Assembly (NCBI GenBank): GCA_045613865.1
Contig: JAZLBT010000015.1
Span: 42,913-106,912, forward strand
Source of the DNA: Candidatus Spyradenecus sp.
GTDB taxonomy: Bacteria > Verrucomicrobiota > Kiritimatiellia > RFP12 > DVOR01
Length of the DNA stretch: 64,000 nucleotides
Direction of reading: 5' to 3'
The notes below the pieces were generated by a model that saw nothing but the letters and a program-made list of their open reading frames with translations, was not told the DNA's origin and searched no databases. The position numbers and the translations under genes are program-made. Each line of letters opens with the position of its first letter. Position 1 is the stretch's first letter. This document shows, one piece after another, positions 14,558 through 56,669 of the stretch.

Positions 14558-15865
14558 ATGCGACCAACACGGCAAACTTTAGCGGTTAACCTTTTGCTCG
14601 AAGGGCAAAAGGCGCTTGTTGTTGGCGGTGGCCGCGTTGGCTTGCGAAAAACCCACACCCTGCTCGCTGCGGGGATGAGTGTCCGACTCGTTTGCCCGAA
14701 GGCAGTTCCTGAATTTAAAGATATGGCAATTGAATGGAATCAAAAGAAATTTGATCCCTCAGATTTGGATGATTGCGCGCTTGTTATTGCATGTACAGAT
14801 GACAAATTCGTTAATCGTTCAGTTCTTGAAGCTGCCAAAAAGGCAAATATCCTTTGTTGTTGTGCGGATGGAAATTGGGCTGAAGGTGATTTTATTGTTC
14901 CCGCAACCTTCTCCACGAATGATGCCAAAATTTCTGTTTCTACAAATGGACGTAGTTGTCGATCCGCAAAACGAATAATGGAATCGCTTCAACGCTTTAT
15001 GACTCAACAAACGGATGGTTGTTTATTTATTCTTGGTGTCAACGAATCAATTCCCCTCCCCCTTTCAAAAGAGCTTCTCTCTCAACGACTCAACTTCCTT
15101 TCTGGTCTTTATGAATGGGTCTTTTTAACAACGTGCCATCGAACAATGTTTATTGCATGGGCAACACATGCATTAATTGAAAGTAAACTCTTACACCACA
15201 TCTTCAACTTCCCTGCATCCTACACCCATGAAAGCGAAGATGCGATGCGCCACCTAACCTATTTACTCGCTGGTCTAGAATCTCGCATGATTGGAGAATT
15301 TCATATTGTAGGTCAAGTTAGAGATGCATTTGACCATGCACGAGAAGCTGGCTGGGCACGAGCAGCATTACCAGAAGTTTATGCAGAAGCCTATCAACGC
15401 GCACAAAAACTTCGTAATGCCATTGCGCCCCACCTCCCAAACATTGAAGTTGAAGCCTTGGCATTAGAGGGTGCAACTGGCCGTGTTGTTATTGCAGGGA
15501 CTGGCTCGCTCGGCATGGCCACAGCACATCACGCGCGTAAAATGGGTCTTGACGTTACACTTCTCTACCATTCTCGCCCTGCGCAAGACGATTGGGATTG
15601 TCGACCGCTCAACGAATGGGAGTCCGCCATTAAAGGCGCCTCGCGTTTTATCTCTGCATGCACAATGGACACCCCCTATTTTGTTGCAGAAAAAATCCCC
15701 ATTCCAATGGTTGATCTTGGCGCTCCACGAAACATTGTAGGAGATAATAATGTACGAGATCTTGACGCCCTCCGTTGCGACTATCTTAAGCGAACAAATA
15801 GCGTAAATACTATTTTATCCATTGCCAACACCGTCTATCAAACGGGAGATTATCGTCATGTCTAA
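14558..15865 (+). CDS. hemA: Fusion protein. The N-terminal ~150 aa is precorrin-2 dehydrogenase / sirohydrochlorin ferrochelatase (SirC / CysG-N / Met8-like); the C-terminal ~285 aa is glutamyl-tRNA reductase (HemA catalytic + NADPH domains).
   Basis: The N-terminus shows LVVGGGRVGLRK, IACTDDKFVN and ISVSTNGRSCRSAKRI, matching the CysG-N pattern. The C-terminus shows LTTCHRTMF (HemA active-site Cys region), GEFHIVGQVRDAF, VVIAGTGSLGM (NADPH site) and MVDLGAPRNI. Confidence 0.65.
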   Translation: MRPTRQTLAVNLLLEGQKALVVGGGRVGLRKTHTLLAAGMSVRLVCPKAVPEFKDMAIEWNQKKFDPSDLDDCALVIACTDDKFVNRSVLEAAKKANILCCCADGNWAEGDFIVPATFSTNDAKISVSTNGRSCRSAKRIMESLQRFMTQQTDGCLFILGVNESIPLPLSKELLSQRLNFLSGLYEWVFLTTCHRTMFIAWATHALIESKLLHHIFNFPASYTHESEDAMRHLTYLLAGLESRMIGEFHIVGQVRDAFDHAREAGWARAALPEVYAEAYQRAQKLRNAIAPHLPNIEVEALALEGATGRVVIAGTGSLGMATAHHARKMGLDVTLLYHSRPAQDDWDCRPLNEWESAIKGASRFISACTMDTPYFVAEKIPIPMVDLGAPRNIVGDNNVRDLDALRCDYLKRTNSVNTILSIANTVYQTGDYRHV

Positions 15866-17846
15866 CACGTTTCGTGTCGGAGCTCGTGACTCTCAACTTT
15901 CACTCTTACAAGCACAAGAAGCCCTCCAACAAATAACGGCGTGCACAGGTGTAACATTTACACTAATTCCATTTTCTTCTCCTGGAGACCGAGACCAAAC
16001 CACAGATTTATCCATAAGTGATGACGATTTCTTTACCCGGGATCTTGACCATGCATTAATTTGTGGAGATATTGATTTTGCGATTCACTCGGCAAAGGAT
16101 CTTCCGCCTAACGGCTATACTCACGATATAGATTGGTTCTGGCTTCCGTGGCGAGAAGATCCGCGGGATAGTCTTATTTGTCGTTGTGAAAATCCAAAGG
16201 TGATTGGAGTCAGTAGCATTAGAAGAATTAACTGGGTTAAACAAAATCTTCCTAATGCAACATGTAAATCCCTAAGAGGAACAATTCCGTTACGCCTTGA
16301 AAAGCTTGATCGTGGCGAATATGATGCTATTCTTGTTGCAGCGGCAGCACTTCATCGCTTGGGGTTGCAACATCGAATTACACGCTATCTTTCATTAGAA
16401 GAGCTTCCCGTTCCAGAAGGTCAAGGTGTTTTAGCCATTACCCATCGTAAAGACGACAAGCGGATTCAGCAATTACGTAATTTGTGGCTTAAAAGTGTAC
16501 GTTTTATTGGTGCAGGGGTTGGTTCTGCAGAATTATGTACACTTGCAGGACTTCGAGAAATCCGACAAGCAGATACAATTATTTATGATGCTCTTATGGA
16601 TGCAACCCTTCTTAATGAAGCTCCATCCGCAAGAAAAATCTATGTTGGTAAACGAAATGGTGTTCATACACTTAAACAGCCAGAAATAACGAAACTCATC
16701 GAAACACATGTTCGTCGAGGAGAACGCGTTGTTCGACTTAAAGGTGGAGACCCTGGGCTCTTTGGCCGCCTAACAGAAGAAACCGATGCGCTCATTCATG
16801 CAAACATTCCATTCCGAGTTTGGCCTGGCGTTTCTGCTCTTACTGCGGCAACGACCGCCACAGGCCTCTTACTCACAGCAAGAGGCGAGAGTCGTGGCTT
16901 TACAGTCTCAACACCACGTAGTGAAAGCGATGCCATAAATGCCGTTTACTTTATGGCGCTTGGTATTGTTGAAACCATTACCGCTCAACACGCTTCTGAT
17001 ACACCTTGTGCCATCGTTACAGATGCAGCAACACCCAATCAAACAATTGAACTGATGACGGTTGGCCAGCTTCATAATCGTTCTACCAATCGCCCAGCAC
17101 TTCTTATTGTTGGACCAGCAGCAAAACACCTTTTCCAGCCATTAGGACCGCTCGCAGGAAGACGCATTTGGGTCACAGGAAGCAACTCTATTGCAGAAAA
17201 GGCTCACCGCATAATCACCGATCTTGGTGGCATACCAATTCTCTCCCCATTGGTTCAATTTAACCCCATTGATCGTATTAAAATCCGACCGAGTAAAGGC
17301 TATAATCTCCTCGTTTGCACCTCCCCCACTGCGGCAAAACTCTTTTTTAGCGAAATGGTCTCTCCTATCGTTTATATGCCAAAGAAAGTTGCTGTTACAG
17401 GTCCAGGAACCGCATCATACTTCCAACCATATAACATCGATGTTATATGTCCAGAAAAAGACTTCTCCGCAAAGGGGCTTCTCGCAACTCTTCCAAACGA
17501 TCTCAGCGGTATGAAAATCCTTCGTATCCGTAGCGTTGAAGCAGGAACAGCATTGTCAGAGGCTCTCAAAAAACGAGGGGCAAAAGTAAAAGATCTACCA
17601 TTTTACGAAACGATTGCATTGCCAGAGCCTCTCATTCCTCCGCACGACACAGTCTTTCTTGCTTCGTCCTCTGCTGCAAAAGCATGGCTAGCAAGTGGAG
17701 CTCCCCGAAGTGTCTCTATCATCGTAATGGGAGAACCAACAGCAAAACCTTTACGTGAGGCGGGGATTGAACCAACCTTTATTGCTCAATGTTCTGCCGT
17801 TGAGGACCTTTTTAATGCTTATAGCGCAAAGTTTATTTATGGATAA
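15858..17846 (+). CDS. Tri-domain fusion of truncated porphobilinogen deaminase (HemC domains 1-2), uroporphyrinogen-III C-methyltransferase (CobA/SUMT) and uroporphyrinogen-III synthase (HemD)
   Basis: HemC-like segment: [61 protein letters not shown] segment: [39 protein letters not shown]. The C-terminal ~230 aa is HemD-like. Start MSNTFRVG at 15858 overlaps the upstream stop. Confidence 0.6.
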
Positions 17847-21011: not shown

Positions 21012-24000
21012 TTATTTCTTACGTTCAAGTTTTTTAACGTCTTCTTGCGACATCAAGACAACTTGGAAGTATTTACAATCCGTTGCGATATTGAGAATAC
21101 GTGGCGCGCCGCCAGAGGTATTCACATCCGAAGCGACATCCAACGTTTGGACAAAATACCATGCAGGATCAGAAAGTGTCTCCTTTCCAACAAGAACAAG
21201 TGTACCATCTGCATAGAGTTGCTTAATCTCTGTTGCACCATTCATAAGTGTAACCGATGCCTGAACACTCTTTTCTGCATTGTTTTCGATTATACCGAAA
21301 GCCGAGAAGCAGAGCGAGACATTGTCACCATTATCCGTAAGTGCGTCATCAAAGCCAAGCCAATACTTTTCTGACAAATCAATCGTACCACTGTTCATTG
21401 CTTGAGCAACGTCAGATGGTGTACCAGAGGCGATTAACCATGCTTCATAGCCAGCATCTTGAGGAGCAGAGTCCTTCAACTTTACAAGGATCTTTTGCGC
21501 TTCCTTATTCGGCACCAACATAACAACATAATTCTTGTCTGTATCAAGGAGCGCCGAATCATAAGAAGACGTCGATACCGAGCGTAAGCCAAGGCCATTA
21601 TCATCCTTTGACGGATCAAAGTCAATACAGTAGCGTCTTAACGTCATTGTCTTCTTTGTCGTGTTCAACGTTGTGACAAGATCCGTTGCGACCTTCACCT
21701 GACTAGAAGCAGCATTACTTAATGCTACATCAACATCAAACCACTCATCCGCAACCGGCTCAAGTGTCAAACGATAACGTGTATTCACTGGGAGATTTGC
21801 CACCGTAAACGACGAAGCTCGAGTCTTCAACGCCGTCAAAATGTCATTTCCTTCTGCATCTGTATAAACACGAGCAAGATCAAAGGTTGGCGTTGGCATC
21901 TTTGCTTCAAGCGCATTCAAGCCCAACGTTCCACCCATATAGCTTGCGCTAATTCGATACGTCCGCGAGATGAAGGCTATAAATTCATCCAACGACATCG
22001 AGGAATAAGGCTGCTTGAAATAATCGCCAGAGAAAGTCGCACTTGTATTATTATTGGGGCCAGGAATTGTAGAAACACCCGAACTTATTAAATAATCCAT
22101 GGGGTACCACACGCGCTGTTGATTTGCAATCGCCTCAAGACCAGATCCATTCTTCTTATAAACATCTACAAAGAGAATAGACGTATTACCCGCTAATCTA
22201 CCAATTGCGATGTTGACATAACGAATAATATTAGAAGAAGCAAAAGACTGCGTCTCAAGGGTTGCAATCTCCGACAAACGCGCATCAAGCGTCAACATCT
22301 CACCCAACGAATCAACTGCATTTTCGTTATTATGCGAGAAGAGAATCTCATCGGCAACAACACCATTATTACGCACGAGCTCAATACCAAAAACAAGTCC
22401 ATCCTTAGCATAATCTACGCCAAGTTCACTGTTAAGATACTTCACCAATGCGTCATAATTCGGGAAGATTTCCATCGTACCAATAGTAGCATCATCACCA
22501 AATTTCGTCTTTTTACCATTCTCTTCAGTCAACAATTCCACCGGGATTGTTGGCGTCTTCAAATAGACGAATTGATCAACATCCATTGCAGGGACAAGTG
22601 TACCCGTTCCCGAGCCATCGTCAACATATTCTCCCGATTGCTTAAGGCATGTAGCATAATCCAAACGCGACAACTCTGCCGTTAACGGATTATATGCTTC
22701 ATCAAACTTAAGATTCGTGATTTCATTATGACTTGTAGCAATTGCATAATAATCAATGCTATCTGCACTTGCATCCGTCGAAACAATACGCTTACCAGGA
22801 ATCCAAGACTTCAACTCAATCGTACGATTATAAAGCGGATGATCCATTGCAAGCATATCGGTCGAACGCGTCCAATTAAGTTTTGTTTTAGCATCCATTG
22901 TCGTTACATCTGGCATCGGTGCATACTTCACAACAATCTTCCAACCATCCAAGGATTGTGCCGGACGATAAAGTTTCTTAGATCCGAAATCAACTTCTGT
23001 AACCGTCGTTGCACGCATTGCAAGTTCAATCGCAGAACCATAACTATCTGTGTGGAAAGGACGAATTTCGTTAATCCAGACATCATTATAACCGATGGAA
23101 TAAATCCATGCATAAGGTGCCACGCCAGCCTTTTGACTCGTTGCCACATAGTTCACATCCGCACGATCTTCAGGAACATACCACGGGCAGTAAACAGGAA
23201 GATTGTCAGACGAGAAATTCGAAACGCCCTGGCAATCAATAATTTCACCCGTTGTTACATCCACGAGAACAACTGCGAAACGAAGAATGGCGCCTTCCGA
23301 CCACACACTTTCATTTTCAGCATTCTTCATCGATAACGTTGCCGTCAACGGAACAAGCGAGTCCTCATTCTGGATCATTGCCAACGCGCCATCATCGTCT
23401 GTTGTCGACGGATCACCCGCATTCAATGCCGCTGTAAGTTCGTCATTCGTCATCACTCGGAAGGCAAGATACGGTGCTTCCGAATCCTTCTTCAAGGCTT
23501 CAACCTCTTGTAATGTCAGCGAGGTCTTATTTTCGAAATCCTCTGTTTCAACTTGATCATCAATCGAACCGCGAATACCCTGAAGCGTCATCGGCAAAAT
23601 ACCACCCTTAACATAAGGCAAGCTCATCGACTTACCACTGTTAGCAAGTTGAAGATTGGTGCGCAACTTCTTGAAATCTGCCGTTACACCATCTCCAATT
23701 GCAGGCATTGCGCCAAACAACTTTGAAATATCCCAGTTTGCAAGGAAAGTTGTTGCACTTTGAGAAGCTGCCCCCGTAAAGAGATCGGAAGGCACTTTAT
23801 TTTTATCGGTCAATGCCCAAACAAGCATCGGAACAACCGTTGGCTTTTCAGAGGTCATCTCTTCAATAATGGTCTCACGAGCATACAAACCATTATCAGG
23901 GCGAATCACTGCCGACATCGACAAGGTATCACCAATCAACGGCTGATAAATCCAACCATGCTTATCACAATGTTCGCCTTCACCATTACCGATTTCATCA

Positions 24001-27000
24001 TCCCAAATAGGATTGGTTACAACCTCACCACCCTTTGTTAAGTCAGGAGCACCAGTGCTATCCAATCCATAGAAGCTCTGAGATACAAGCCATGCACCAA
24101 ATTCAATGCTACCAGGACGCATTGCCATAACAAGATTATTTGTTGCAGACGCCGGTTCTGCAATGAGAAGAACTGCAACCACATAATCATCTGTATCTTG
24201 GAAGAGCAATCCCGAGGTTTCATCAACCACCGCATCGCCATTAAAGATAATACGACCCGTAAAGGATTCTTCACCCGCGACCTCTGCAGTTGCAAAACCT
24301 CCGAGCTCAACATATATGCGAGCCTTTTCTGCATTTGACGTGGCAGTCTCTGCACGATAATAGGTTTCCCGTGCAAGCATCAACAAATCACCCTGCGAGA
24401 ATTCTTCACCCTTTGCAAGACGTTTGCCAACAAGAAGTACTTTACCCATCCATTCTGCAGGAAGCGTCAAGTAATCATAGGTATATCCCACGCGAGGACG
24501 ATAGGTAATCACACGCTGAATTTGATTCTTTGTGATATCAGAAACCCACGAATTCGCAGCAAACGATTCTTCTGCTGTAGCGCCAATAACTGTCGTTTCC
24601 GTTGGCACATAACCAAAGGCTTGCCAACCACAAGGCGATCCACCATAAACCGTATTCAACAATGTTGATGTCACACGAATGCGATTCCATTCGGGATTCG
24701 AATCAAGACCAACATCACCATTGGCGCCATTCTCTGTGCCGTTAGTTTCAGAGGCAACAAAACGCCACAAGGTTCGCTCTGCGCGGGTTTCACGCAAGAT
24801 GTCACCAAACTCATCGGTCGTTGTACCACCGACCAACTGAATCGAACCTGCTGTATTCAAGGCATCCGTTTGCCCCTCTACAATGTAGTGGCCAAGCGTA
24901 GTAGAAACATCGGTGGTAGCAGGAATACTACTTCCACCATTAGCTGTAACACCCGTCCAAACGCCACCCTCGCCTGCACCACACGGACGAATCAATGCAA
25001 CGGCAACAGCATCTTCATTTACATCAGTTGCCGTCTTAGCAACAAACTTGTAAGAGAAAGATGAAATCGCATCAAGCGCTTGAGCATCGCTCATATCCAC
25101 CCAGTCCATCGCTGTTCCACCTGGAACAGTATATTGGACCTTCCATCCATCTGTTGTAACTTCTGGTACACCTTCACCAAGACCTGCCCCAAGAATACCC
25201 TGACGCAACTTTGGAATAACCACTTCAACAAATGGCTCCGTTCCCGTACCTTTAACAAGGTTAACCTCATTCAACCACACCGATTCCGGAGGTGTGCTAT
25301 AGAGGTAGAAGTAAGGGATTTCTCCTTCTTGCTTTAATGGCGCATACCACTCTGGCCATGCATAACGAGGACTGGAAGTATCCTGAGGAATCAAATACTG
25401 AATTGTCTCTGTCGATGCACCCGATTGTACCGTAACGGCATAAACACCCCAGGCAAGATAGGGAATCTTTGGCTCCTTAATTATTATATTGCCATTAAGA
25501 TCCTTTTTCATATAGCTATCACCCAAGACCGTTACACACGTTGGGCTATAAATCTCACTTAAAGTGTCATTCACTTTACGCGTCAAGTCTAATACCGCAG
25601 AGCGCAAATAACCAGCGTCTCCCAACGCATTCATCTCGGCTTTAGCTTTGTCAAAGGTAAGACCCGTTAACGCAAGAATCTTATTCTTCCACTCCGTCCA
25701 CATTGTATCATCAAGATATGCAGTGGGATACGTGATAATCGCCCCAACAAGGCGTGCATTCTTTGCCGCTAATTCCGCGGTATTATATTTCACACTAAAT
25801 CCGAAGGCGCTACCACACCACGGTTGATACTTCGCATCACCCGTAAGCGCATCACCACAGAATGGCGAAACCTCCGTAATAATATCCTCTGCACCCTCTG
25901 CTGCAACAATATAATTTGCAGATAAGGTAAAGGAATACTTCGTTCCATCATTAAGCTCTGGAATCAATTGTAGGACAAGACGATCCACATTCTTTGGCTC
26001 AAAGGTTGCGACCATCGTGTTCGGTTGATTGACATCCGAAGCAAACGTTACACTAAACGAAGTCTCATCTTCAACGATTAAGTTTTTAAGCGCTTCTTCT
26101 GTTGCAACGGCCACACCATCTTCTGTACTTGTCGCAGTTAATGTAACCTTTTCAAGTTTATTAAACGGGAAGGCGGTATAGGTAACTTTAACCTTTGATC
26201 CATCAGGAATCGTACGATAAATCATATCACGACCACCAAAGATCGTTGTTGTACTAATCCCATTTTCATCAAGGAAGTCAACCATATGCTGACCAAGACC
26301 ATTAACTTGAGAAGAGATTGTATTACCATTTGGATCTGCATAGTAAATCAACCACTGATCAAGGTTAATTTGACGAGGTGTAACTTGAACCTCTTTATTC
26401 GTATCTCCTGGACGAGCCTGTTCTGTCAAATTGAGCGTTATATTAAACGGAGAGGCAAAAAGGTGGCTAACATCTAGCTGCCCCTTTTCCTCATTTTCCG
26501 TTCCAAGGGGTGTATTCGCATTGGTACGCATAACCCAAGCACCACCCATGTCGATCGTTGCAATCGAGTTTACGCGCTCCTTGCTTGAAGAACGAGCATC
26601 ACCAATAAAATTCTCTGTTGTGCCATTCTTGTCATAAATGCCATCGGCATTTGTCTTAAATGTCTTCACAACAGCGAGACGACGTGCATGATCTGCAGAT
26701 GTATAATTCGCATCGGGCTTATTCGTCGAGGAATCCCAATCTTCCTCACGGAAACTTTGGAACCATTCTGTACCGAAGCCTTCTTGTTTATAAGCAGTAC
26801 GATACTTTGTTGCTAATGCATCCAGACGAGACTCGGCATTGACAGATGATCCTTGACCATCTTGCCACAAGCTGTAAAGCACAATATGCTCTGCACCACC
26901 CGTTGGACGATAGAGGCGAAGCGCAACAGCAGCACTGTTCGTTCTTTCATAACCAGAATAAAGCCCCGTTTGTGCACGACCCGCATTTTTATGAGGTTCA

Positions 27001-30000
27001 CTCGTAACATTCTCATTATTTGCGAGAAGATTCGAATTCGCATTAATGATGGTATAAAATGTTCGATTCGAAAGCGGAGTTGCACCGCCCTGTGCAGGAA
27101 CTGCACCTGGATCAGGAACAAGCGGAGTCCCTTCATCTCTAATTGCAAAGGTCTCAACTGTAGAGAGTAAATTTGCATCGGAGATATCCGCGAACCAACC
27201 ATTCATGGAGTTCTTTGCCGGTGTACAGAATTCAATAAATCGTTTCATCAATGTTCTTGATGCATCGTTCATATTAAATTCATTAATAAAGACTTCTCCA
27301 GGAACGGTGTCATAAAGCCAAAAATAAGGCGTAAAGAAGCTTGAACCCTTTGTGTCAAAGGCGCCAACACCTGCATTTTCCGCATTTGAAGCAAGCTCAT
27401 TACAACGTGTACGCATTTCCGTATTAAGATTGCGCGGGAAATACCATGGGAAATCGGTATACGAGCCAGCATCAATAATCGAATATCCATAGCGTGGATT
27501 ATCCTCTGTACTATCCTCTGTTTCAAAAACCGCCCATACGGCATAACGCACAAGTCCATTTACTTTCAACTTCTTTATTTCATCAAACGCATCCGCATCA
27601 TCAGAGATTGTCCTAAAGGTTTGCTTTTCCGACGGCTCATCCTGACGCGTAAGCAAGATGGTATTTCCTTGCAAACTTGTCAAACTCTCAAGACCAGAAG
27701 CGGTTAACGCATCGTAATTTGCTTTATTCTCTGCTGCATCCAAACGCATGAAGGTGTCTTCAATTGCAGCACGCTTTGTTGCAAACCATGTTTCGAGCCC
27801 CCAAGCATCCAATGCTTGGGCAGCCTCTTCAAAGCTTGCCTTTGTGTCGCCAAGATTTTCAGTAATAGAAACATTCGATTCTATCGTAGGATCCCATGCA
27901 TAAATCGGTGTTGTTGCAGCTTCAACCGTTGTATCCAAAGCATTTCGGTAAGAATAATCCGAAGTAACACGTTTCATCTCCGTTGGAACATTCCACGTAA
28001 AGAAGACCTTAATTGAATCTTTCTTCACTTGCTGCAACCGATCCACTGTCACTTTTACCGCAAGAGGAGAACCCGCAAGTGGTTGAGAAAGCGGCGAATT
28101 ACGACCATCGGCAACGTCAAAAATACCACTGGCGCCATCCAACACTTTCGTATGCTTTTCAAAATTGTCTCCCGGAAGCGTTGAGAAACAAACATTACTC
28201 AAGCGTACAGAGGGAGCAATTGGTTCTGTGATAGAAAGTTTATCCAACCAAATGCGACCATACGCCTCAACTTGAGGTACACCATTACGACCATCAACAA
28301 CTCCACCCTCTACAGGAACATGAAGGCGAATGCGCTTCAAACTCTTATAATTCGGAATTATTTTAGTCAAATCAACATCATATTGACGATAAAGCGTATC
28401 CTCGATTTTTACACGTGTAAGATACGTATAATCATCTGGGAAGGACAATGATTCATGAGCATCAATGGTTTCACTCTCATAACCATAGACATAAACATAA
28501 TGATTTTCCAAAGAAGGCTCGTCAAGACGTGCAGCAAAACTAATAATCCCCGCACCCTTTTCCAAAATCGGAGACTCTACATAAGACTGAAGCAAAGGAT
28601 TTTCAATGCCACCAACAACATCCTCTGTGATGTGGTCATTAAAAAGTACGGCGCGCGTAAGACGACTCTTCCATGCGAACGTCTTTTCATTAATATTTTT
28701 CGCAAGACGATCCTTCCAATAAAGAGATGCTATTGGCTCTTCGCTTAATCGAATGTTACCTGCACTCCAAAGCGCCACCTCGCCAGAACTTGACGTAATA
28801 CGGAAATCATCAAGATAAACATAGGGGTCATCAGTACTATCAATCGGAGAAACCATGACGAGTCGAAGAATACCACGTTCCATCGAAACATATTTCGAAT
28901 TTTCTAATAGACGCGGTGTGATTGACATCGTTCGCCATTCACCATTGGTTATAGGAAGCTCAATTTCTGTCGAAACATTTTCCCAACTCGACAATGGATA
29001 AGAATCATTCAAATTATCAGTATGAGAGCTTCGGGCATTTGTGTATTGAAGCAACAAACTCACCGAAGGATTCTGTACATTGTCTTTAAATTCACTTTGT
29101 AAAGGAATACGATAACGGAAAGAAATCGTTCCAAAGTTATCGCTCGAATAAGGCGTATAAAGCGCCAATGTACTTGCTGTATGATGAATATTATTCGTCG
29201 ATCCTGCAGAAAGTCCGTTAGAAGTGTTACGTCGAGAATACTGCATCAAGAGACACTGCTCACCCGTGTATTCCGTTGGCTGCGCACTATTTTGCGATTC
29301 GTCTACTGGCTGTACCCAAACACCAACAGCAGAGAAACCATCCGTTTCCGACTCATTCCAATGTGTATTGGTATAAAGAGGAACTTTCGTTCCATTACGA
29401 TTCGTATCATCACCCTGCCACGAGCTAACCGTCAAATCATCAATGAAGACTTCGTTCCCATCTGTTGCCACAAGCGAGAGCGAAAGATCTGCTCGACCCA
29501 CCGTGATAGAATACTCTTGCTCTGTATCTCCCGCGGTAAACACGGCTAATTGCTCCGATTTGCCCTCCGAAGCAGAATATCCATCTAACCGAACCTGAGC
29601 AGAGGTGTCCGCGGGGCGTTTGCCACGTTGAAGTTGTAACTGTGAACCACTTGCGCTATTCACGACCCACTTCGCGTCTGACGTAAGAAGTTCCACTTTT
29701 GTTGTGTCTGGGGTATATGTTAAACCCTCAAATGCGCCATTGGTCGCATTCATATAAACAATAGAGTTAAAGATCGGCCAACATTCCGCCGAACCAAATG
29801 CAATATGCGTTAATGTTGTTTGGGGAACTGTACTCGTTGATTTAATTGTTTTATTCGCAAAGGATGCATTCAAGAAGCCCGCATCATCAATCCAAAGTCG
29901 CGCTTCTTTATTTTGCATCGAATCCTGATTCGTTACATGATAGTCCTTAGTGCCATTATCAACCTCGAACGACTTACGTGTAGCAACGCCCCCTGTCCAT

Positions 30001-33000
30001 TGCCATAACTCCATGACAACACGTTCTTGAGGACGTTCGCGACCATCTTGATAAATGAAAATCTGCGACAATCGTAATTCGTAATAAGTGGAAGTAAGTC
30101 CAACATTACAAAGATAAAGCGAAGTTGAATAACCAGACTTTGTTTTATCATTAATAGCAATTGTTGTACCAACACCCTTAAACGTCTTTGACGAATCACT
30201 GCAAAAAACAATACGGTCAATCGCATAGGGTTCCGAACGACTAAGCTTAAAACGAACCTCTCCTATACCCTTAAGAAGGGAAATATCACTACGAGCATCC
30301 GTAGACTGTTTAATGGTAGCATTACCAGACAATCGAACCATCGCATCGGGTTGATATCCCGATGGCGTCTCAATCATACTATTCGCGTCAAGTTTTAATA
30401 CAACCTGATTACCGTAAGAACTGCCAAATTCAAAGCCCTCGGTCCATGTTCTCGAATCATCTTCATCTTCACGCAAATACTTATGTGACGCAGGTTCACT
30501 CGAAGCACCCCAAGATGCAAAATAGTCTGCCGCAATGTTTGCAAGATCGCCAACAAAGAACTGATACGAAATACCAATATCCCCTGACGATTGCTTATTA
30601 TCACCATAAGCACGGCCAACCGTAAAATGATCCGTAATTTCAGAGGTTGTTGCAAGTGGACCTTGATCAGGAATCCAACCTCTTGAAATCTTTCCATCAC
30701 CCGAGATGATTGCATCAAAATTCGCGACCGCCGACTTTACATTCTCATGGAATTCTGTGTCAGCAAAGAGTCCATTTGACGCAGCATCCCATGTATTAAA
30801 ATCTTGTTCATTTGCACCACAAACAGAAAGTGTCCCAGCCTGCGTTGCAATATCTTCTGGCTCCTTAAAGGTGACACACAGATGTGTCGCACTGAGCTCG
30901 GAAATGTCAACCAAAATGGGAACGATCTCTTCAGGCGTTTTACCCGCTGTTAAGATTTCACCATTTGTTAACGAAATTGTACTTCCTGGATATGCAGGCA
31001 ATGTCGTTGGCATGCCACCTTGAACAACCGTTTCATTTTGACCATACCAATATTCATTGCCGTTCGGTTGACGAACACGAACTCGGAAGTTTACAAGATT
31101 TAAATGGTATTCCGCATCCCCGTCTGTCGCATCTGTAACCCAGGCATAAATCGCATCTGAATCCTTCTTTTCGGTATCCCCAGAATATATAATATTTCCC
31201 TCTGCAGAAACTGCAATTTCTTTAGGAAGCATCACATACCAAGAGCGAGATTCACGACCATCAGGAATGAAATTAACTTCTGCATCCTTCATCACATAGC
31301 CAAACGTTTCTCCTGCTCGCGTACGATATGTTAACACCATATCGATTTGCGTAGCATTCGTAAGTTGCTCTCGAACTTCAAGTGTTAAAGGATAGAAGCC
31401 CTTTGTTGAATCATTGTCATCTACTGGCAATTCCTTCACAAGAAGTGTTGTTTGCTCACGCTTATCCAAAACATCTCGGCCAGCCTCAAACGAACCAAGT
31501 AACTTACAATCTAATGTAAGATTATACACGCCTGGCAAAAGCGAAACTACATTGCCTTTTTCATCACGGCAAAAGGAGTTCTCTGCCACATTTGTAAATG
31601 CACCAAGACCATTTTTTGTAAGACGCTTAGAGTCTACGCCCATAAATGATGCAACAAGGGACTCACTATCAACCTCCATTGCCGCACTGTATGTTCCGCA
31701 AGCCTCATCACTGTCTGCTCGACGCGACAGCCCAAGAGATGCCTCATATCCTCGTGGCACCCGATTTACATTAGGGGTAACCTTAAAGTTAACCGTATAA
31801 CGTTCGCCCTCGTTCTTTTCTACATTATAGACATTACATGCTGCACCAATAAGATTTGCATCATTATCCTTAATTTGTGGTGCACCAATTGTTGCCATTG
31901 GTGTAGCTGATGAGACACGCAACTCTCGAATAAGAATCGTTGTCGCATACGCGTCATCAATCGTAACCTCGTTGCCAAATGATGTTACACGTAAAATACG
32001 GAATTGAGCCCCTGCATTCCCTGTAGCCTCTTCGTCCACCTTCACCGTAACAGATGTAAGACTTTGTGTTGGTGTAATAAGTGTTGCTGTAGGGTTACCT
32101 AAATCTTGCTTTACAAACGTACCATTTGCCCCTTTAACAGAAACACCTTCTGTCGTCCAAACACCTCCAACTTTCACCTGTACATAAAGATACTGTGGAG
32201 ATTCTGTTGCATCCGTAACAATCTTCGTCTTAAAGACAATCTTACTAATACCATCGGGGTAGGTTGGAGAGACAACCATCGGACAATCTTCAAACGTCTG
32301 TAAATTCTTGATGTTTTCAAGAGTCACGTCCACATCATTTAACAACAATGCACCCTCGTCTACGTAATTGCCTCCCGCAGAACCCAATGCAACTTTCTTT
32401 AATTCCCACGAAGTCCCAGAAATAGCCATGGAATCAAGCATATAAGCATTGTACTTCTCACGACCAAAATAAGAATCGCTCCAAACGTTATCTGTATTAT
32501 CATCACGATTAACCCCACGCCAAATACGCGGGTCTGTGAAATCCATCTTACGGCCATGGTCTTGAATATCAGAAACAATCGTGAAGAGGCCTAAACCGTA
32601 CCGCGATGCCGCATACCACTCATACGTTGCACGACCATTAATCAACGAATCCAAAAGCGGATTCATATTTTCAGGATTATTCCAATCAATCACAAGCACA
32701 TTACTATAAAAACGGCGTTCCCAACGCGCAGGATCGCGCACTGTTCCCACAGTCAAGGAGGTCAATGTGTCAGGAATCGAAGCGCCAGAAGAAACCACAT
32801 CTCGATTAATATCCCCCTGCTGAGGCATGGGATAATAACCCGAATCTTCTGCGGTTAAATAGATTGCACCAGACCACGCAGAGCCTTCGCCTCCATGCGG
32901 ACGATACATAAGGGTTGCAGGAATAGCTCGAAGTGTAGTCGCAATTCCCTTTGTTCCCGTACGAGGAACCGACACCGTTAAGCAAACCTGTGCGCTTGTT

Positions 33001-33182
33001 GAATTCTCCGTCAAAGGATCCTTTGTATCAGCATCAACAAGTGTTAATGCATAAAGCACCGGCTCTTCTTGAGAAACTCCAACAGGCACAGATGTTGTTG
33101 CCGAAAAAACAGGTTCGGCGGACCCGAAAATAAAGCCCGCCACAAGTGCTGAAAGCACGTTTGAAAAGGATAAGCGTTTCAT
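21012..33182 (-). CDS. Giant secreted protein 1 (4,056 aa from the ATG at 33182), probably a multi-domain beta-sandwich / jelly-roll surface protein or adhesin
   Basis: One uninterrupted ORF with a Sec signal peptide (MKRLSFSNVLSALVAGFIFGSAEPVFSA). It is Thr/Ser/Asn/Asp/Gly-rich and Cys-poor, with recurring (I/L)DD(F/L).(I/V) motifs (YVYLDDFRITS, EVFIDDLTVSS) of the kind that close ConA/LamG-like jelly rolls. The ORF track start at 33191 is a TTG; the ATG three codons later was preferred. Confidence 0.85.
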   Translation of the reverse strand: MKRLSFSNVLSALVAGFIFGSAEPVFSATTSVPVGVSQEEPVLYALTLVDADTKDPLTENSTSAQVCLTVSVPRTGTKGIATTLRAIPATLMYRPHGGEGSAWSGAIYLTAEDSGYYPMPQQGDINRDVVSSGASIPDTLTSLTVGTVRDPARWERRFYSNVLVIDWNNPENMNPLLDSLINGRATYEWYAASRYGLGLFTIVSDIQDHGRKMDFTDPRIWRGVNRDDNTDNVWSDSYFGREKYNAYMLDSMAISGTSWELKKVALGSAGGNYVDEGALLLNDVDVTLENIKNLQTFEDCPMVVSPTYPDGISKIVFKTKIVTDATESPQYLYVQVKVGGVWTTEGVSVKGANGTFVKQDLGNPTATLITPTQSLTSVTVKVDEEATGNAGAQFRILRVTSFGNEVTIDDAYATTILIRELRVSSATPMATIGAPQIKDNDANLIGAACNVYNVEKNEGERYTVNFKVTPNVNRVPRGYEASLGLSRRADSDEACGTYSAAMEVDSESLVASFMGVDSKRLTKNGLGAFTNVAENSFCRDEKGNVVSLLPGVYNLTLDCKLLGSFEAGRDVLDKREQTTLLVKELPVDDNDSTKGFYPLTLEVREQLTNATQIDMVLTYRTRAGETFGYVMKDAEVNFIPDGRESRSWYVMLPKEIAVSAEGNIIYSGDTEKKDSDAIYAWVTDATDGDAEYHLNLVNFRVRVRQPNGNEYWYGQNETVVQGGMPTTLPAYPGSTISLTNGEILTAGKTPEEIVPILVDISELSATHLCVTFKEPEDIATQAGTLSVCGANEQDFNTWDAASNGLFADTEFHENVKSAVANFDAIISGDGKISRGWIPDQGPLATTSEITDHFTVGRAYGDNKQSSGDIGISYQFFVGDLANIAADYFASWGASSEPASHKYLREDEDDSRTWTEGFEFGSSYGNQVVLKLDANSMIETPSGYQPDAMVRLSGNATIKQSTDARSDISLLKGIGEVRFKLSRSEPYAIDRIVFCSDSSKTFKGVGTTIAINDKTKSGYSTSLYLCNVGLTSTYYELRLSQIFIYQDGRERPQERVVMELWQWTGGVATRKSFEVDNGTKDYHVTNQDSMQNKEARLWIDDAGFLNASFANKTIKSTSTVPQTTLTHIAFGSAECWPIFNSIVYMNATNGAFEGLTYTPDTTKVELLTSDAKWVVNSASGSQLQLQRGKRPADTSAQVRLDGYSASEGKSEQLAVFTAGDTEQEYSITVGRADLSLSLVATDGNEVFIDDLTVSSWQGDDTNRNGTKVPLYTNTHWNESETDGFSAVGVWVQPVDESQNSAQPTEYTGEQCLLMQYSRRNTSNGLSAGSTNNIHHTASTLALYTPYSSDNFGTISFRYRIPLQSEFKDNVQNPSVSLLLQYTNARSSHTDNLNDSYPLSSWENVSTEIELPITNGEWRTMSITPRLLENSKYVSMERGILRLVMVSPIDSTDDPYVYLDDFRITSSSGEVALWSAGNIRLSEEPIASLYWKDRLAKNINEKTFAWKSRLTRAVLFNDHITEDVVGGIENPLLQSYVESPILEKGAGIISFAARLDEPSLENHYVYVYGYESETIDAHESLSFPDDYTYLTRVKIEDTLYRQYDVDLTKIIPNYKSLKRIRLHVPVEGGVVDGRNGVPQVEAYGRIWLDKLSITEPIAPSVRLSNVCFSTLPGDNFEKHTKVLDGASGIFDVADGRNSPLSQPLAGSPLAVKVTVDRLQQVKKDSIKVFFTWNVPTEMKRVTSDYSYRNALDTTVEAATTPIYAWDPTIESNVSITENLGDTKASFEEAAQALDAWGLETWFATKRAAIEDTFMRLDAAENKANYDALTASGLESLTSLQGNTILLTRQDEPSEKQTFRTISDDADAFDEIKKLKVNGLVRYAVWAVFETEDSTEDNPRYGYSIIDAGSYTDFPWYFPRNLNTEMRTRCNELASNAENAGVGAFDTKGSSFFTPYFWLYDTVPGEVFINEFNMNDASRTLMKRFIEFCTPAKNSMNGWFADISDANLLSTVETFAIRDEGTPLVPDPGAVPAQGGATPLSNRTFYTIINANSNLLANNENVTSEPHKNAGRAQTGLYSGYERTNSAAVALRLYRPTGGAEHIVLYSLWQDGQGSSVNAESRLDALATKYRTAYKQEGFGTEWFQSFREEDWDSSTNKPDANYTSADHARRLAVVKTFKTNADGIYDKNGTTENFIGDARSSSKERVNSIATIDMGGAWVMRTNANTPLGTENEEKGQLDVSHLFASPFNITLNLTEQARPGDTNKEVQVTPRQINLDQWLIYYADPNGNTISSQVNGLGQHMVDFLDENGISTTTIFGGRDMIYRTIPDGSKVKVTYTAFPFNKLEKVTLTATSTEDGVAVATEEALKNLIVEDETSFSVTFASDVNQPNTMVATFEPKNVDRLVLQLIPELNDGTKYSFTLSANYIVAAEGAEDIITEVSPFCGDALTGDAKYQPWCGSAFGFSVKYNTAELAAKNARLVGAIITYPTAYLDDTMWTEWKNKILALTGLTFDKAKAEMNALGDAGYLRSAVLDLTRKVNDTLSEIYSPTCVTVLGDSYMKKDLNGNIIIKEPKIPYLAWGVYAVTVQSGASTETIQYLIPQDTSSPRYAWPEWYAPLKQEGEIPYFYLYSTPPESVWLNEVNLVKGTGTEPFVEVVIPKLRQGILGAGLGEGVPEVTTDGWKVQYTVPGGTAMDWVDMSDAQALDAISSFSYKFVAKTATDVNEDAVAVALIRPCGAGEGGVWTGVTANGGSSIPATTDVSTTLGHYIVEGQTDALNTAGSIQLVGGTTTDEFGDILRETRAERTLWRFVASETNGTENGANGDVGLDSNPEWNRIRVTSTLLNTVYGGSPCGWQAFGYVPTETTVIGATAEESFAANSWVSDITKNQIQRVITYRPRVGYTYDYLTLPAEWMGKVLLVGKRLAKGEEFSQGDLLMLARETYYRAETATSNAEKARIYVELGGFATAEVAGEESFTGRIIFNGDAVVDETSGLLFQDTDDYVVAVLLIAEPASATNNLVMAMRPGSIEFGAWLVSQSFYGLDSTGAPDLTKGGEVVTNPIWDDEIGNGEGEHCDKHGWIYQPLIGDTLSMSAVIRPDNGLYARETIIEEMTSEKPTVVPMLVWALTDKNKVPSDLFTGAASQSATTFLANWDISKLFGAMPAIGDGVTADFKKLRTNLQLANSGKSMSLPYVKGGILPMTLQGIRGSIDDQVETEDFENKTSLTLQEVEALKKDSEAPYLAFRVMTNDELTAALNAGDPSTTDDDGALAMIQNEDSLVPLTATLSMKNAENESVWSEGAILRFAVVLVDVTTGEIIDCQGVSNFSSDNLPVYCPWYVPEDRADVNYVATSQKAGVAPYAWIYSIGYNDVWINEIRPFHTDSYGSAIELAMRATTVTEVDFGSKKLYRPAQSLDGWKIVVKYAPMPDVTTMDAKTKLNWTRSTDMLAMDHPLYNRTIELKSWIPGKRIVSTDASADSIDYYAIATSHNEITNLKFDEAYNPLTAELSRLDYATCLKQSGEYVDDGSGTGTLVPAMDVDQFVYLKTPTIPVELLTEENGKKTKFGDDATIGTMEIFPNYDALVKYLNSELGVDYAKDGLVFGIELVRNNGVVADEILFSHNNENAVDSLGEMLTLDARLSEIATLETQSFASSNIIRYVNIAIGRLAGNTSILFVDVYKKNGSGLEAIANQQRVWYPMDYLISSGVSTIPGPNNNTSATFSGDYFKQPYSSMSLDEFIAFISRTYRISASYMGGTLGLNALEAKMPTPTFDLARVYTDAEGNDILTALKTRASSFTVANLPVNTRYRLTLEPVADEWFDVDVALSNAASSQVKVATDLVTTLNTTKKTMTLRRYCIDFDPSKDDNGLGLRSVSTSSYDSALLDTDKNYVVMLVPNKEAQKILVKLKDSAPQDAGYEAWLIASGTPSDVAQAMNSGTIDLSEKYWLGFDDALTDNGDNVSLCFSAFGIIENNAEKSVQASVTLMNGATEIKQLYADGTLVLVGKETLSDPAWYFVQTLDVASDVNTSGGAPRILNIATDCKYFQVVLMSQEDVKKLERKK

Positions 33183-33183
33183 A

Positions 33184-34272
33184 TCAGTCAATCTTCTCCC
33201 CGTCTACATTGACGCCGCCAGAACCATACCACTTGGAAAGTTTCTTGCGTTTATTCATATCGGGTTTAGAGGAATCCGTTGATGGATCGTCAATTGCTTC
33301 AACACGTCCATCGCCAAAACAAACAAATGCTTGCATCTTGCCATCATTGTCATAATTGAAACCGAGACATTCGTCTTGGGCATCCCAATCCCAAACTTGG
33401 TCTCCTGCAAGAGGTTCTGTCTTCACCTTGTCATTATCCAAATCAAGCTCGACAAAGAGAACCGTTCGAGATGGCAATGCTTCAGCCGTTTCATTACCAC
33501 TTCCAGTTCGAGCCTTTAACGTATTCGCACCGTAATTGATAGAGGACGAAAAACCACGATTAAATTGCATCCCTGTACAATATTCCCGTTCTGTTCCGTA
33601 AAGATCTTCGTCTGCACCTGCAACAACATTCATTGCATACGAACGCATAACATGTTCTTCTCGACGAACATGACGTAAGCGGAATGCACGCTTCGCAAAG
33701 TTTTTATTCACATAGGAGGCGAAATCACTATTCATCAACTCGAAAAGTGCACCAACACGAATTGTATTCAATGCACCAGTCTTCATAGAACTTGTTGAAG
33801 ATTCGTCAAACCAAGTCGCGGGTTGCGCATTAATACCACCCTCTTTTTGAGAGGTATTAAAGCAACGGCAAAGACCTTCCTCATTGACGTAATCATCTGG
33901 ATTAGCATCATCCGACGAGCTAAAGCCATACCCATTACCACCGCCATCGCCAATTTCAAAAGAACATTCATGGCCAAAATAAACCCATCCTGCAGCACGG
34001 CCATAACGTTCTTCATAACCACTAGACTTCCGAAGGCGATACTCATTAAACCAACCACCCGCAGCAGGAAAATGACCATCATGGCGCATCTTGTAGAGAA
34101 GTGTAGATTGCCCCAAACGGCGTAAATCTTCACGCGCATCTGCAGACTCTGCAGAAGAAAATGCTTTACCAATAGTTGCTGTCAACGTTGCGCCAAGGAT
34201 GCCAATAATCATAATGACAACCAACAACTCAATCATTGTAAAACCGAGTGAAAAATTCTTTCGCGTCTTCAT
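33184..34272 (-). CDS. Prepilin-type N-terminal cleavage/methylation domain protein, DUF1559 (H-X9-DG-like) pseudopilin family
   Basis: MKTRKNFSLGFTMIELLVVIMIIGILGATL is a canonical type IV pilin / T2SS pseudopilin leader with the G|FTxxE methylation site. The C-terminal FVCFGDGRVEAIDD resembles the DUF1559 C-terminal box. Its stop TGA (33186-33184) lies 1 nt before the giant gene ATG (33182). Confidence 0.75.
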   Translation of the reverse strand: MKTRKNFSLGFTMIELLVVIMIIGILGATLTATIGKAFSSAESADAREDLRRLGQSTLLYKMRHDGHFPAAGGWFNEYRLRKSSGYEERYGRAAGWVYFGHECSFEIGDGGGNGYGFSSSDDANPDDYVNEEGLCRCFNTSQKEGGINAQPATWFDESSTSSMKTGALNTIRVGALFELMNSDFASYVNKNFAKRAFRLRHVRREEHVMRSYAMNVVAGADEDLYGTEREYCTGMQFNRGFSSSINYGANTLKARTGSGNETAEALPSRTVLFVELDLDNDKVKTEPLAGDQVWDWDAQDECLGFNYDNDGKMQAFVCFGDGRVEAIDDPSTDSSKPDMNKRKKLSKWYGSGGVNVDGEKID

Positions 34273-34486
34273 AAACGGTCCTCTCATACTTAACTATATT
34301 ATATGTCAAAAAACAGTCAAAAGCAACTGTTAATCAATGTGTCAAAAAAAATATTTCAAAAATGCGCTTAAAGTGCCTTTTTTATGCATCTTCTTTTTTA
34401 AAAAGATTTCTTAAATAAAAAATTAACTCTTTTTTTTCAATTTTCGCGTACTTTCTCCATCTTATCCCCCCTACTCTTCTTAACAA

Positions 34487-37457: not shown

Positions 37458-39827
37458 TTAATGTTGTTCACCAAGGAATCCATGGAGTTTCTTTATACGT
37501 GTGGGATGGCGAAGCTTACGCAACGCCTTGGATTCTATTTGACGAATACGTTCGCGAGTAACGGAAAAAAGTTTTCCGACCTCTTCGAGCGTACGGGAGT
37601 AACCATCGGTCAAGCCGAAACGATAATCAAGGACCTGGCGCTCACGTTCACTTAAAGAATAGAGCACCTCACGGAGACGTTCCTTGAGCAAGGTAAATGC
37701 AGCAACGTCTTCAGGACGTTCTGCAGCCTTGTCCTCAATAAAGTCTCCAAAGTGAGCGTCATCACTGTCGCCCACAGGGCTTTGGAGGGAAATGGGCTGC
37801 TGGGCCATGCGATAAACAGTCTTCACACGATCCACAGGCAAGTTCATTTCATCGGCGGTTTCTTCCATTGTCGGTTCGCGGCCCAACTCCTGAAGGAGTT
37901 TTTTCTGGACACGCAAAAGTTTATTAATGGTTTCAATCATATGCACAGGAATACGAATCGTTCGAGCCTGATCCGCGATTGCACGCGTTGCAGCTTGACG
38001 AATCCACCATGTTGCATACGTAGAGAATTTATAACCACGCTGATACTCAAATTTCTCAACAGCTTTCATCAAGCCTGTGTTGCCCTCTTGAATCAAATCC
38101 AAGAAGCTCAACCCGCGGTTCATATACTTCTTTACAATTGAAATCACCAAACGGAGATTGGCTTCCACCATCTCCTTTCTTGCTTGCGCTCCTGCGCGGA
38201 GTGCACAGCGAAGCTCTTCAAAAGCGTTCATAAACATCTTTGCAGGCATACCGAATTGCTTCTCTGCAACCGACATACGGCCTTCTAATTCTGCAAGCTT
38301 TTGTGTACGCTTTTTACTGAAACCTTGACGTTTCAGTTTCTTATGCACCACCATCATTTCCTTATAAGGCTTATAATAGGTTTCTTCGGCGTGCATACAA
38401 ATTGTTTCAAGCATCTTTTGCTTGAACTGCAAAGATTCATACTTTGCGCGCATTTTCTTACAATACTCTTCTAAACGGCGGTTAATCCCAGACAACGTCT
38501 CGGTATCATTCTTTGCCGTCGCAGCGATTTCATTATAAATCGCTTCCATCTCAATGCGCATTTCTTTAAGACGTGCTTGCTCTGGACGCATTGTTTCTAC
38601 ATACGTGTCGCGACTTTCCGAATACTTATCCGTCACAACACGATCAAAGCGTTCCTTGCCGCAATCCAACCCATTTAAAACATAGGCATACAAATCTGGA
38701 GCAATAGGCAAACGATTAAAGACATTAACAATCGTTGCTTCACTCTTTTCAATACGCTTACAAATAGAAACTTCCTGTTCGCGTGTAAGCAACGAGACTT
38801 GACCCATTTGATGCAAATACATACGAATCGGGTCATCAATAAAATCAACACGACCAGACGCGAATTCCTCACGTTGCTCTGCCATTGCATCTTCAAGATC
38901 TTCCTCTGCAACAACACGAACAGACATCGTTGCAAGTAAGTTCAAGAAACGCTCAATCGAGGTGTCTTTAATGATATCAGCAGGAAGATATTCATTCACC
39001 TGCTTAAGCGATAATACACGACTCTGTGTTTCAGAAAGCTTCAACAAATCTTTCAAACGTTCACGACATTCTTCACGCTCTTCAAGCTCTTCAATATCTT
39101 GTAACGCTTGTTGCTTCTTTGCATCCTCTTCAGAATTCGTAAAGACAACGCGAACATCAGAACCTTGAGCTAATCCACCCCATTCACCTTCATGAGCATA
39201 CATATCCGATTCGTCGTCAGGACGAATCGTACGCTCTGCCGGACGAACAAGACCCGAGTGTTCATGTTCGTTATATTCAACACCACCTACATTCTCAGAA
39301 TCCTGTTCTGACACACCGGCCAAAAGCTTTTCATCAGACAACTCTTCTGCATCTGGTACATCATCTTCATCATTTGAAAATTCACCAGGAGCATCAATAA
39401 GGAAATCATCCTCTCCAAGTGTAATCGTCACAAAGCCTTCTTCATCAACAGGCAAATTCACCAAACGAGGATCAAGCTCCTCTTTCTCCTTGGTTGTCTT
39501 CTTGGAGGAGGTCGATTCTACACCTTTCTTATTTTTCACAGGCTTCTCAGCAACCTCTGCAGTTTTTTTCTTAGAACCCTTTGGCGCTGCCGCAACCTTT
39601 TCAACACCCTTTTTAGAAACCTCTTGCGACGGCTTTGCTTTCTCAACACCCTTCTTACTCACAGTTTTTGATGGCATTGATACCTTTTTTGCTTCGTCTA
39701 CCTTAGAAGACTTCTTCTCGCTCTTCTTCTGAGGCTCCTCTGCTTTCACCGAACGCTTTGCAGACCCAGCTGTTGCTTGTGTTTTTTTCTTCTGCACAGG
39801 GGTTTCTTTTTTCGTTGCCTTCGCCAT
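37458..39827 (-). CDS. rpoD: RNA polymerase primary sigma factor sigma-70 (RpoD) with an extended Lys-rich/acidic N-terminal region of about 370 aa
   Basis: Region 2 [36 protein letters not shown], region 3 and region 4 ([30 protein letters not shown]) are all canonical. The start is assigned to [10 protein letters not shown] (ATG at 39827) rather than the ORF-track start at 39971. The N-terminus carries KKxS/KKGVEK repeats followed by an acidic block. Confidence 0.9.
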
Positions 39828-54675: not shown

Positions 54676-54714
54676 ACCGTGTACCACTCCATTTCAAGGG
54701 GGTTTTTTATAAAA

Positions 54715-56646: not shown

Positions 56647-56669
56647 CTTCATTGTTCGTTTTCGAAGGA

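Follow-up and report, generated by a model that had tools for sequence, protein, structure and literature searches.

To our knowledge, it is not known how proteins of 4,000-8,000 residues pass the outer membrane and are retained at the surface in diderm bacteria of the Planctomycetes-Verrucomicrobia-Chlamydiae (PVC) group. This question is raised by a stretch of 64,000 nucleotides of Candidatus Spyradenecus sp. (contig JAZLBT010000015.1 of assembly GCA_045613865.1, positions 42,913 to 106,912 of the forward strand; hereafter, the window), which encodes two giant proteins, g1 and g2, on its minus strand, so that the C-termini of both correspond to the low-coordinate ends of their genes. A first-pass annotation of this DNA had described a homologous module in the last 150-200 residues of the two proteins, and had interpreted it as a novel sorting, secretion or anchoring domain. 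Here we analyze what the two ends have in common, how widely it is distributed and which role could be attributed to it. The results indicate that a real, uncatalogued and clade-specific terminal domain is present, while its proposed role in sorting is unproven.

Homology between the C-termini of g1 and g2

All the strings that had been pointed out in the two tails were found on translation: EAWLIASGTPS in g1 and DAWEWIQSGRPS in g2, GKETLSD followed by W in both, and the endings KYFQVVLMSQEDVKKLERKK and KFFKVVLEVKTK. The region 21012..21464 corresponds to the final 150 codons of g1, and statistical support for homology was concentrated in the last part of it. When the two tails of 299 residues were compared by BLASTP, 48 residues aligned, starting with GKETLSD and ending with K[YF]F[QK]VVL, with 42% identity (E=4e-4), and Smith-Waterman alignment of the last ~60 residues gave a score of 61 versus a mean of 21 for shuffled sequences (z=9.7), a score that was reached by none of 2,000 shuffles. 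A profile obtained from 28 related tails, in which neither g1 nor g2 was included, recognized residues 4555-4665 of g2 with an independent E-value (iE) of 2e-19 and residues 3997-4054 of g1 with an iE of 1.7e-5. Among 2,443 open reading frames (ORFs) from the window and related loci (~530 kb), g1 was the sole match beyond the training set and g2 (E=0.003). Hidden Markov models (HMMs) built from 4, 29 and 128 tails, together with hhalign comparisons, aligned with g1 only over its last ~55-85 residues. The homology that can be demonstrated between g1 and g2 is thus the segment between GKETLSD..W and K[YF]F[QK]VVL. A shared C-terminal module does exist over the last ~55-60 residues, and its extension to 150-200 residues was rejected, given the confinement of the HMM and hhalign alignments to the end of g1 and the result of the shuffle test upstream of it (z=0.5). 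The remainder of the two proteins is unrelated, as had been proposed, the best BLASTP E-value elsewhere being 0.03. We also considered that the two genes might have undergone recent gene conversion, and rejected this: the g1 tail is equally close to those of two other proteins, P0081 and P0012, and DNA identity is unremarkable.

Of the four features that had been taken as the signature of the module, GKETLSD..W and K[YF]F[QK]VVL were retained, and the other two did not hold. The module had been thought to start at the motif (E/D)AW..SG.PS. A window of 40 residues around this motif gave z=1.4, and the value for the whole upstream region is the one indicated above. The g2 match can be explained because DAWEW is part of 'DVDGDKLADAWEW', the ninth D.D.D[GK]..D..E repeat of this protein, of the TSP3 type; a regular expression survey found no repeat of this kind in g1. 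The orthologues of g2 keep the repeat invariantly as DKLADAWEW, and the Pfam model TSP3_bac scores on relatives. The resemblance of EAWLIASGTPS to the g2 motif is probably due to chance. Regarding the Lys/Glu tail, it is not characteristic of the family, most relatives stopping four residues past F[FY][KR]V.

Predicted fold of the terminal domain

The last 135 residues of g2 were modeled with AlphaFold2 using an alignment of 41 sequences, resulting in a predicted local distance difference test (pLDDT) score of 77.9 and a predicted template modeling (pTM) score of 0.69; a run on the last 299 residues with four sequences was unusable (pLDDT 46). A soluble sandwich is predicted, whose strands have 7-8 residues, and the order of its elements is helix, long beta-hairpin, second helix and four strands. 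The final four strands are the part common to g1, in which they correspond to residues 3997-4054. According to this g2-based model, the shared tail would comprise the last four beta-strands of a beta-sandwich of ~110-130 residues, similar to immunoglobulin (Ig) or fibronectin type III (FN3) domains. Judging from its sequence, g1 would carry a divergent copy of the domain, recognizable only in its C-terminal half.

No match at E<1e-3 was obtained when the model was compared with PDB entries using Foldseek. The sequence profile gave sub-threshold matches to Ig constant domains, and it also cross-matched a few other proteins in which fn3-like '...W...FYRV' repeats occur in tandem. None of the Pfam or NCBIfam models covers the domain in the 41 members. 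A weak match to SnoaL_2 in g2 (E=1e-5, under the gathering score) was discarded as spurious, since it is not common to other members. Weak, non-significant echoes of the final strand motif were also noticed inside both giants, in residues 3784-3818 of g2 ('...GLLKGFFKTEVVSV') and 587-617 of g1 ('...DSTKGFYPLTLEV'); they are a hint that internal domains of g1 and g2 may be distantly related to the terminal sandwich.

Distribution of the domain and characteristics of its carriers

The search for relatives started from the last 299 residues of g2, which retrieved three metagenome fragments, and a subsequent genome scan led to 30 loci. The labels of these loci correspond to metagenome-assembled genomes (MAGs) from gut or rumen, mostly of Kiritimatiellae and otherwise of 'Lentisphaeraceae' or Verrucomicrobia, with two exceptions: a contig that had been placed in an Agathobacter bin, and another labeled only 'uncultured bacterium'. 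Full-length orthologues of g2, with ~35% identity, are present in 21 Kiritimatiellae MAG loci. For a broader view, 1.84 billion cluster representatives were scanned using HMMER with a profile of eight tails (A3) at E<=1e-3. This resulted in matches in 160 clusters, nearly all of them at the very C-terminus, so that the tail is not confined to the two proteins of the window. The sequence [FY][FY][KR]V was found within the last 25 residues in 147 of 154 proteins (scan matches plus the earlier fragments), its commonest position being four residues ahead of the stop. When the 60 proteins of at least 2,900 residues were considered, the domain was present exactly once in 58, and its end was located 0-5 residues from the stop in 57. 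Apparently complete carriers (59) have Sec-like signal N-termini and lengths between 1,061 and 7,774 residues, with a median of ~4,250. The numerous short matches are contig-end fragments, in which such signals are absent.

In a typical member, nothing is recognizable apart from TSP3_bac repeats and a single Laminin_G_3 domain. With g1 set aside, the long carriers form a single BLAST-connected component with common TSP3/LamG body domains; g1 alone has a body unrelated to those of the others. The signature of the family can be written as [VI]x[VI][YW]xKxxLxxxxW, followed after ~25-35 residues by GF[FY][KR]V[EVI][VLI]. A member was defined as a Sec-exported protein of >1,000 residues with a profile match that ends within ~15 residues of the stop and the elements ...L....W... 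and F[FY][KR]V. Both giants belong to the family by this definition, g1 over the C-terminal half of the domain only. No conservation peak was observed in the tail: in 13 orthologues its identity to g2 was 27-33%, versus a mean of 30% along the whole protein. In the literature that we found on giant genes of PVC bacteria and Omnitrophota, such a terminal domain is not described.

With respect to the two giants of the window, the real start of g1 is likely the ATG at 33182, giving a product of 4056 residues, and this same product has been recorded on a 112.5-kb contig of an NCBI assembly. Its N-terminus is a Sec-type signal peptide (MKRLSFSNVLSALVAGFIFGSAEPVFSA), and no Pfam, NCBIfam or PDB match was obtained over the whole protein. 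The recorded product of g2 starts at the ATG at 54675, has 4662 residues and is identical to P0009; besides the Sec signal peptide and the terminal domain, a LamG (Laminin_G_3) domain was found in it once and the TSP3-type repeat nine times. Comparison of g1 by BLASTP with every fetched giant gave no match, and none was found in two metagenome scans. Its last 200 residues had no match in an index of 5.8 billion proteins. These negative results are of little weight, given that the cluster representative is an internal fragment. At 90% identity, the 4056-residue g1 falls in a cluster (P0163 / P0164) represented by an internal fragment of 150 residues from a Joint Genome Institute (JGI) metagenome, and because of this, representative-based searches are blind to most of g1, including its tail; other giant proteins may be affected in the same way. 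An orthologous N-terminus of g1 was identified in the locus L016 (JAFYWN010000030.1), right after a pilin-like gene with 41% identity to that of the window: its start, 'MKRQFKLGALFLL...GVVQEERVSYALSLIDAGD', matches 'GVSQEEPVLYALTLVDADT' of g1, and its C-terminus lies beyond the fetched DNA.

Some other observations on the carriers can be mentioned. Many giants share the sequence GDIYEI(R)P(C) directly after the signal peptide (P0015, P0020, P0024, P0046, P0055, P0062, P0080, P0111, P0128, P0129, P0132 and P0143 are among them), which suggests a conserved N-terminal domain besides the C-terminal one. This sequence is absent from g1 and g2, and proteins of the g2 type start with '...IRIDSIK.S'. 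The locus L020 (CAVDHG010000003.1), labeled Agathobacter rectalis, holds an orthologue of g2 and is probably a mis-binned Kiritimatiellae contig. In P0001, a tail of the g2 type follows in frame the end of a class-V aminotransferase (PF00266), a fusion that is probably a chimera derived from assembly or gene calling.

Possible role of the terminal domain

The reading that we favor, with a confidence only somewhat better than even, is that the tail is an undescribed Ig/FN3-like domain, restricted to one clade, that closes the members of a giant surface-protein family and most likely has a structural function as a cap or cell-proximal foot. Giant proteins exported through Sec would form a lineage-specific family in gut and rumen Kiritimatiellae, all of them ending in one obligatory copy of the domain; TSP3-type calcium-binding repeats and LamG domains abound in their bodies. 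In this family g2 is a typical member, while g1 is an otherwise unrelated giant carrying a divergent copy of the domain. Both the surface location and the role as cap or anchor are what we infer: an extended fiber at the surface might have the domain as its end cap or as its cell-proximal 'foot'. The domain would be the last to emerge from the Sec channel, and could dock the fiber to the envelope. It would be inherited together with the protein architecture, rather than being a portable sorting tag recognized by a machinery. That the domain is bound to the family and not portable is suggested because the long carriers except g1 form one BLAST component, there are no conserved neighbors and the tail is no better conserved than the body. 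What the first-pass annotation had named as support, a tail recurring on many unrelated secreted proteins together with a dedicated processing or transport gene, was not found: the tail recurs in one family of giants plus g1, and no partner gene is conserved near the 30 loci.

Several points weigh against this reading. A terminal domain in single copy, present across diverged bodies and also in g1, is likewise the pattern expected of a recognition or anchoring signal, and the C-terminal domains (CTDs) of the type IX secretion system (T9SS) are also Ig-like sandwiches of weak conservation. No small unrelated cargo was found in the scan of 1.84 billion representatives, in which small proteins that are below the threshold or represented by fragments could escape detection, as was the case of g1, hidden behind a fragment. 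Finally, the same fold is assumed for the N-terminal half of the g1 domain, where it would have to be present in a sequence that is not recognizable as such.

In an alternative reading, the domain would indeed serve for sorting or anchoring, following the logic of T9SS CTDs, and after Sec export it would be recognized by a putative outer-membrane system of Kiritimatiellae for the translocation or attachment of giant surface proteins. The invariant location at the extreme C-terminus in 160 clusters with one copy per protein, the presence of the domain in g1, whose other 4,000 residues match no carrier, and the similarity in fold and size to T9SS CTDs would fit such a function, as would the fact that complete carriers have Sec signals and no other recognizable device for outer-membrane transit. 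On the other hand, the cargo is essentially one family of giant proteins, small unrelated cargo is missing from the scan, no partner gene is conserved near the 30 loci or in the window, conservation of the tail does not exceed that of the body and neither Por_Secre_tail nor any other sorting HMM matched the 41 members, all of which makes us regard this as a possibility of lesser, though real, probability. It is also conceivable, although we find it rather doubtful, that giant proteins of Kiritimatiellae follow an undescribed route for export or surface anchoring, in which the terminal sandwich would serve for recognition or attachment as a CTD-type signal that evolved independently of the T9SS of Bacteroidota; if so, g1 would be evidence for the grafting of the domain onto an unrelated cargo. 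Another role that would not involve export or anchoring is that of a tip for self-association or ligand binding, located at the distal end of the fiber and directed to host glycans or other cells. The LamG domains and calcium-binding repeats of the giants are typical of adhesins, and the gut and rumen habitat is consistent with this idea; variation according to the ligand would, however, be expected in a binding tip, and yet the same domain closes very different bodies, so that we consider this role improbable.

A different objection would be that the likeness between g1 and g2 is convergent or fortuitous, consisting of two short beta-strand motifs chosen post hoc from ~8,700 residues. The tail alignment does not appear at E<10 when the whole proteins are compared by BLASTP, the profile scores of g1 are low (9.5-14.5 bits), the hhalign probability is only 50-65%, the pattern '...L....W ... 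F[FY][KR]V' is also found in generic fn3-like repeats and half of the motifs originally quoted are not significant. This explanation is nevertheless very hard to reconcile with the outcome of the shuffle test, or with the fact that, for each of three independent profiles lacking g1, its sole significant match fell within the final 60 residues of a protein of 4,059, at the terminal position that is characteristic of the family and in register with it. In addition, no other non-family ORF was matched among those of the window and related loci, and the g1 tail scores equally against the distant members P0081 and P0012 as against g2. We therefore give it little credence.

At least 160 sequence clusters of giant proteins from animal-gut Kiritimatiellae end in this compact, uncatalogued domain, which provides a handle to annotate these otherwise featureless proteins and to count them per genome, as well as a candidate determinant of anchoring or export that is open to testing. 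Should it turn out to be merely a structural cap, it would offer a useful definition of the family and no new mechanism.

Features of the window and neighboring genes

The location of the features described above and of the genes next to them is given in Table 1.

Table 1. Location of the giant genes, their C-terminal elements and adjacent features within the window.
Feature	Position	Strand	Description
Giant protein g1	21012..33191	minus	4059 residues from a TTG start; ORF list and N-terminal sequence
Part of g1 homologous to the g2 family	21030..21203	minus	Residues 3997-4054, TLVLVGKETLSDPAW...CKYFQVVL
EAWLIASGTPS of g1	21414..21446	minus	Likeness to g2 DAWEWIQSGRPS, with no statistical support
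Prepilin-type (pseudopilin-like) gene	33184..34287	minus	N_methyl / TIGR02532 matches; just upstream of g1
Giant protein g2	40687..54687	minus	4666 residues from a GTG start; ORF list
Complete C-terminal domain of g2	40693..41025	minus	Residues 4555-4665; predicted (AlphaFold2) Ig/FN3-like beta-sandwich with two short helices
Core of g2 common to g1	40705..40842	minus	Residues 4616-4661, FYGKETLSDEW...KFFKVVL; BLASTP and shuffle test
Ninth TSP3-type calcium-binding repeat of g2 (bacterial)	41254..41313	minus	'DVDGDKLADAWEWIQSGRPS'; regular expression survey; not tail-specific
Predicted lipoprotein	54715..55371	minus	Lipobox LILQGC|G; 218 residues; 28 nucleotides upstream of g2
Antisense ORFs	42178..43281, 43357..44973, 45052..46680, 46774..47883	plus	Opposite g2
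Antisense ORFs	48130..49230, 49240..50082, 50824..51930, 52168..53256	plus	Opposite g2

Between g1 and g2 there are genes for a primary sigma-70 factor, a glycogen phosphorylase and a prepilin-type protein. The stop of the latter, pseudopilin-like gene abuts the start of g1, to which it is translationally coupled. A pilin-like gene is also paired with the g1-like start in L016 (19463..20927), a Kiritimatiellae MAG from water-buffalo colon, and no such neighbor was found beside other giants. The protein of the window is a prepilin or pseudopilin of the PVC type (GFTMIELLVV...) with the C-terminus ...FGDGRVEAI. As for the lipoprotein predicted upstream of g2, it is rich in Ala, Lys, Glu and Gln and has no family match, and a near-identical copy was seen in a Logan assembly. 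In the search for a conserved partner gene, no neighbor was kept in more than three of the 30 loci, and the window contains no secretion gene save the one pseudopilin, the rest being housekeeping genes.

Other observations do not relate to the tails. The plus strand opposite g2 contains a chain of antisense ORFs of 280-542 residues, all in one frame (42178..53256), and similar 'shadow' ORFs, up to >3,000 codons long, were seen opposite giant genes in related loci; they are presumably an artefact of codon composition and not genes. Two ORFs of ~700 residues occupy almost the same span on opposite strands, 56652..58781 (plus) and 56670..58775 (minus), and the plus-strand one has no Pfam match. 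The sigma-70 factor (37458..39971, minus; 837 residues) has an N-terminal extension of ~300 residues before region 1.1. The gene at 14558..15865 (plus) encodes an unusual fusion of a siroheme-synthase-type NAD_binding_7 domain and GlutR_N (HemA), and the ORF at 15822..17846 (plus; 674 residues) combines porphobilinogen deaminase, TP_methylase and HemD.

Comparison with known sorting and anchoring systems

Pfam and NCBIfam models of sorting domains, including PEP-CTERM, Por_Secre_tail, LPXTG and GlyGly-CTERM, were compared with the tails and the full sequences of g1 and g2 and with 41 tails of the family, and, in agreement with the first-pass annotation, none was matched. The absence of a transmembrane helix, a PEP motif and a terminal LPXTG in both tails was also corroborated, RTX motifs being absent as well, and the assignment of the host outside Bacteroidota is correct, its lineage being PVC (Kiritimatiellae). 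With PEP-CTERM, LPXTG and GlyGly-CTERM the domain shares nothing but the C-terminal location. The motif, the transmembrane helix and the model match (TIGR02595) of PEP-CTERM are all lacking; there is no hydrophobic segment in the last 150 residues, where Kyte-Doolittle values in 19-residue windows do not exceed 0.8; no LPXTG or transmembrane segment is located near either C-terminus; and a basic C-terminal cluster is not conserved in the family. The autotransporter barrel (PF03797 / PF03895, including the trimeric YadA anchor) gave no Pfam match, and while that barrel has an aromatic end, the last residue of the giants is Q, E or K, or else their tails are variable.

The giant RTX adhesins exported by type I secretion systems, such as LapA, SiiE or MpIBP, are similar in being giant proteins with calcium-binding repeats in which the C-terminus is singled out. 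In these adhesins, the information for export resides in an uncleaved secretion signal at the extreme C-terminus. In contrast, a Sec signal peptide is located at the N-terminus of g1, g2 and their relatives, GGxGxD nonapeptides are absent from them and their tail is predicted to be a folded sandwich instead of a disordered signal. The bacterial TSP3 repeat (PF18884, DxDxDGxxDxxE), a calcium-binding motif similar to thrombospondin type 3, accounts for the g2 element described above, which fits its pattern and lies outside the shared module, g1 being devoid of the repeat. Another comparison concerns the fn3 (PF00041) and Ig-like beta-sandwich domains, including the tandem repeats found in other surface proteins of bacteria, with which the tail has in common the strand signature '...W.S.pG..Y.v....dL....W...FYRV'. 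The tandem-repeat proteins cross-matched by the tail profile are P0033, P0095, P0099 and P0141, and the last of these, a distant protein, is the only one that scores on Pfam fn3. The domain of the giants differs from these repeats in being single-copy and strictly terminal, and in having two inserted helices, and is not seen by the Pfam fn3 model, which had no match in g1, g2 or the 41 tails.

The system that offers the most parallels is the CTD of the T9SS (Por_Secre_tail; TIGR04183 / PF18962), a sorting domain of Bacteroidota. In both cases a folded Ig-like beta-sandwich of ~80-130 residues, without a transmembrane helix and weakly conserved save for a few strand motifs, is located at the extreme C-terminus of Sec-exported and often very large surface proteins, and this arrangement, which defines T9SS CTDs, was found in the giants according to the model. 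The differences concern sequence, host, cargo and machinery. Neither TIGR04183 nor PF18962 gave a match at E<=1 in the tails of g1 and g2 or at E<=0.01 in the 41 members, that is, g1, g2 and 39 relatives, and the host belongs to PVC/Kiritimatiellae. The cargo is here one family of giant proteins, plus g1, and not dozens of diverse enzymes. No T9SS core gene (PorK/L/M/N, Sov, PorU/V), and hence no partner of the PorU/PorV type, was seen in the window or in the 30 loci, whole genomes being unscanned. Of the systems compared, it is the T9SS CTD class that the terminal domain of the giants would most resemble in the way it works, without belonging to it.

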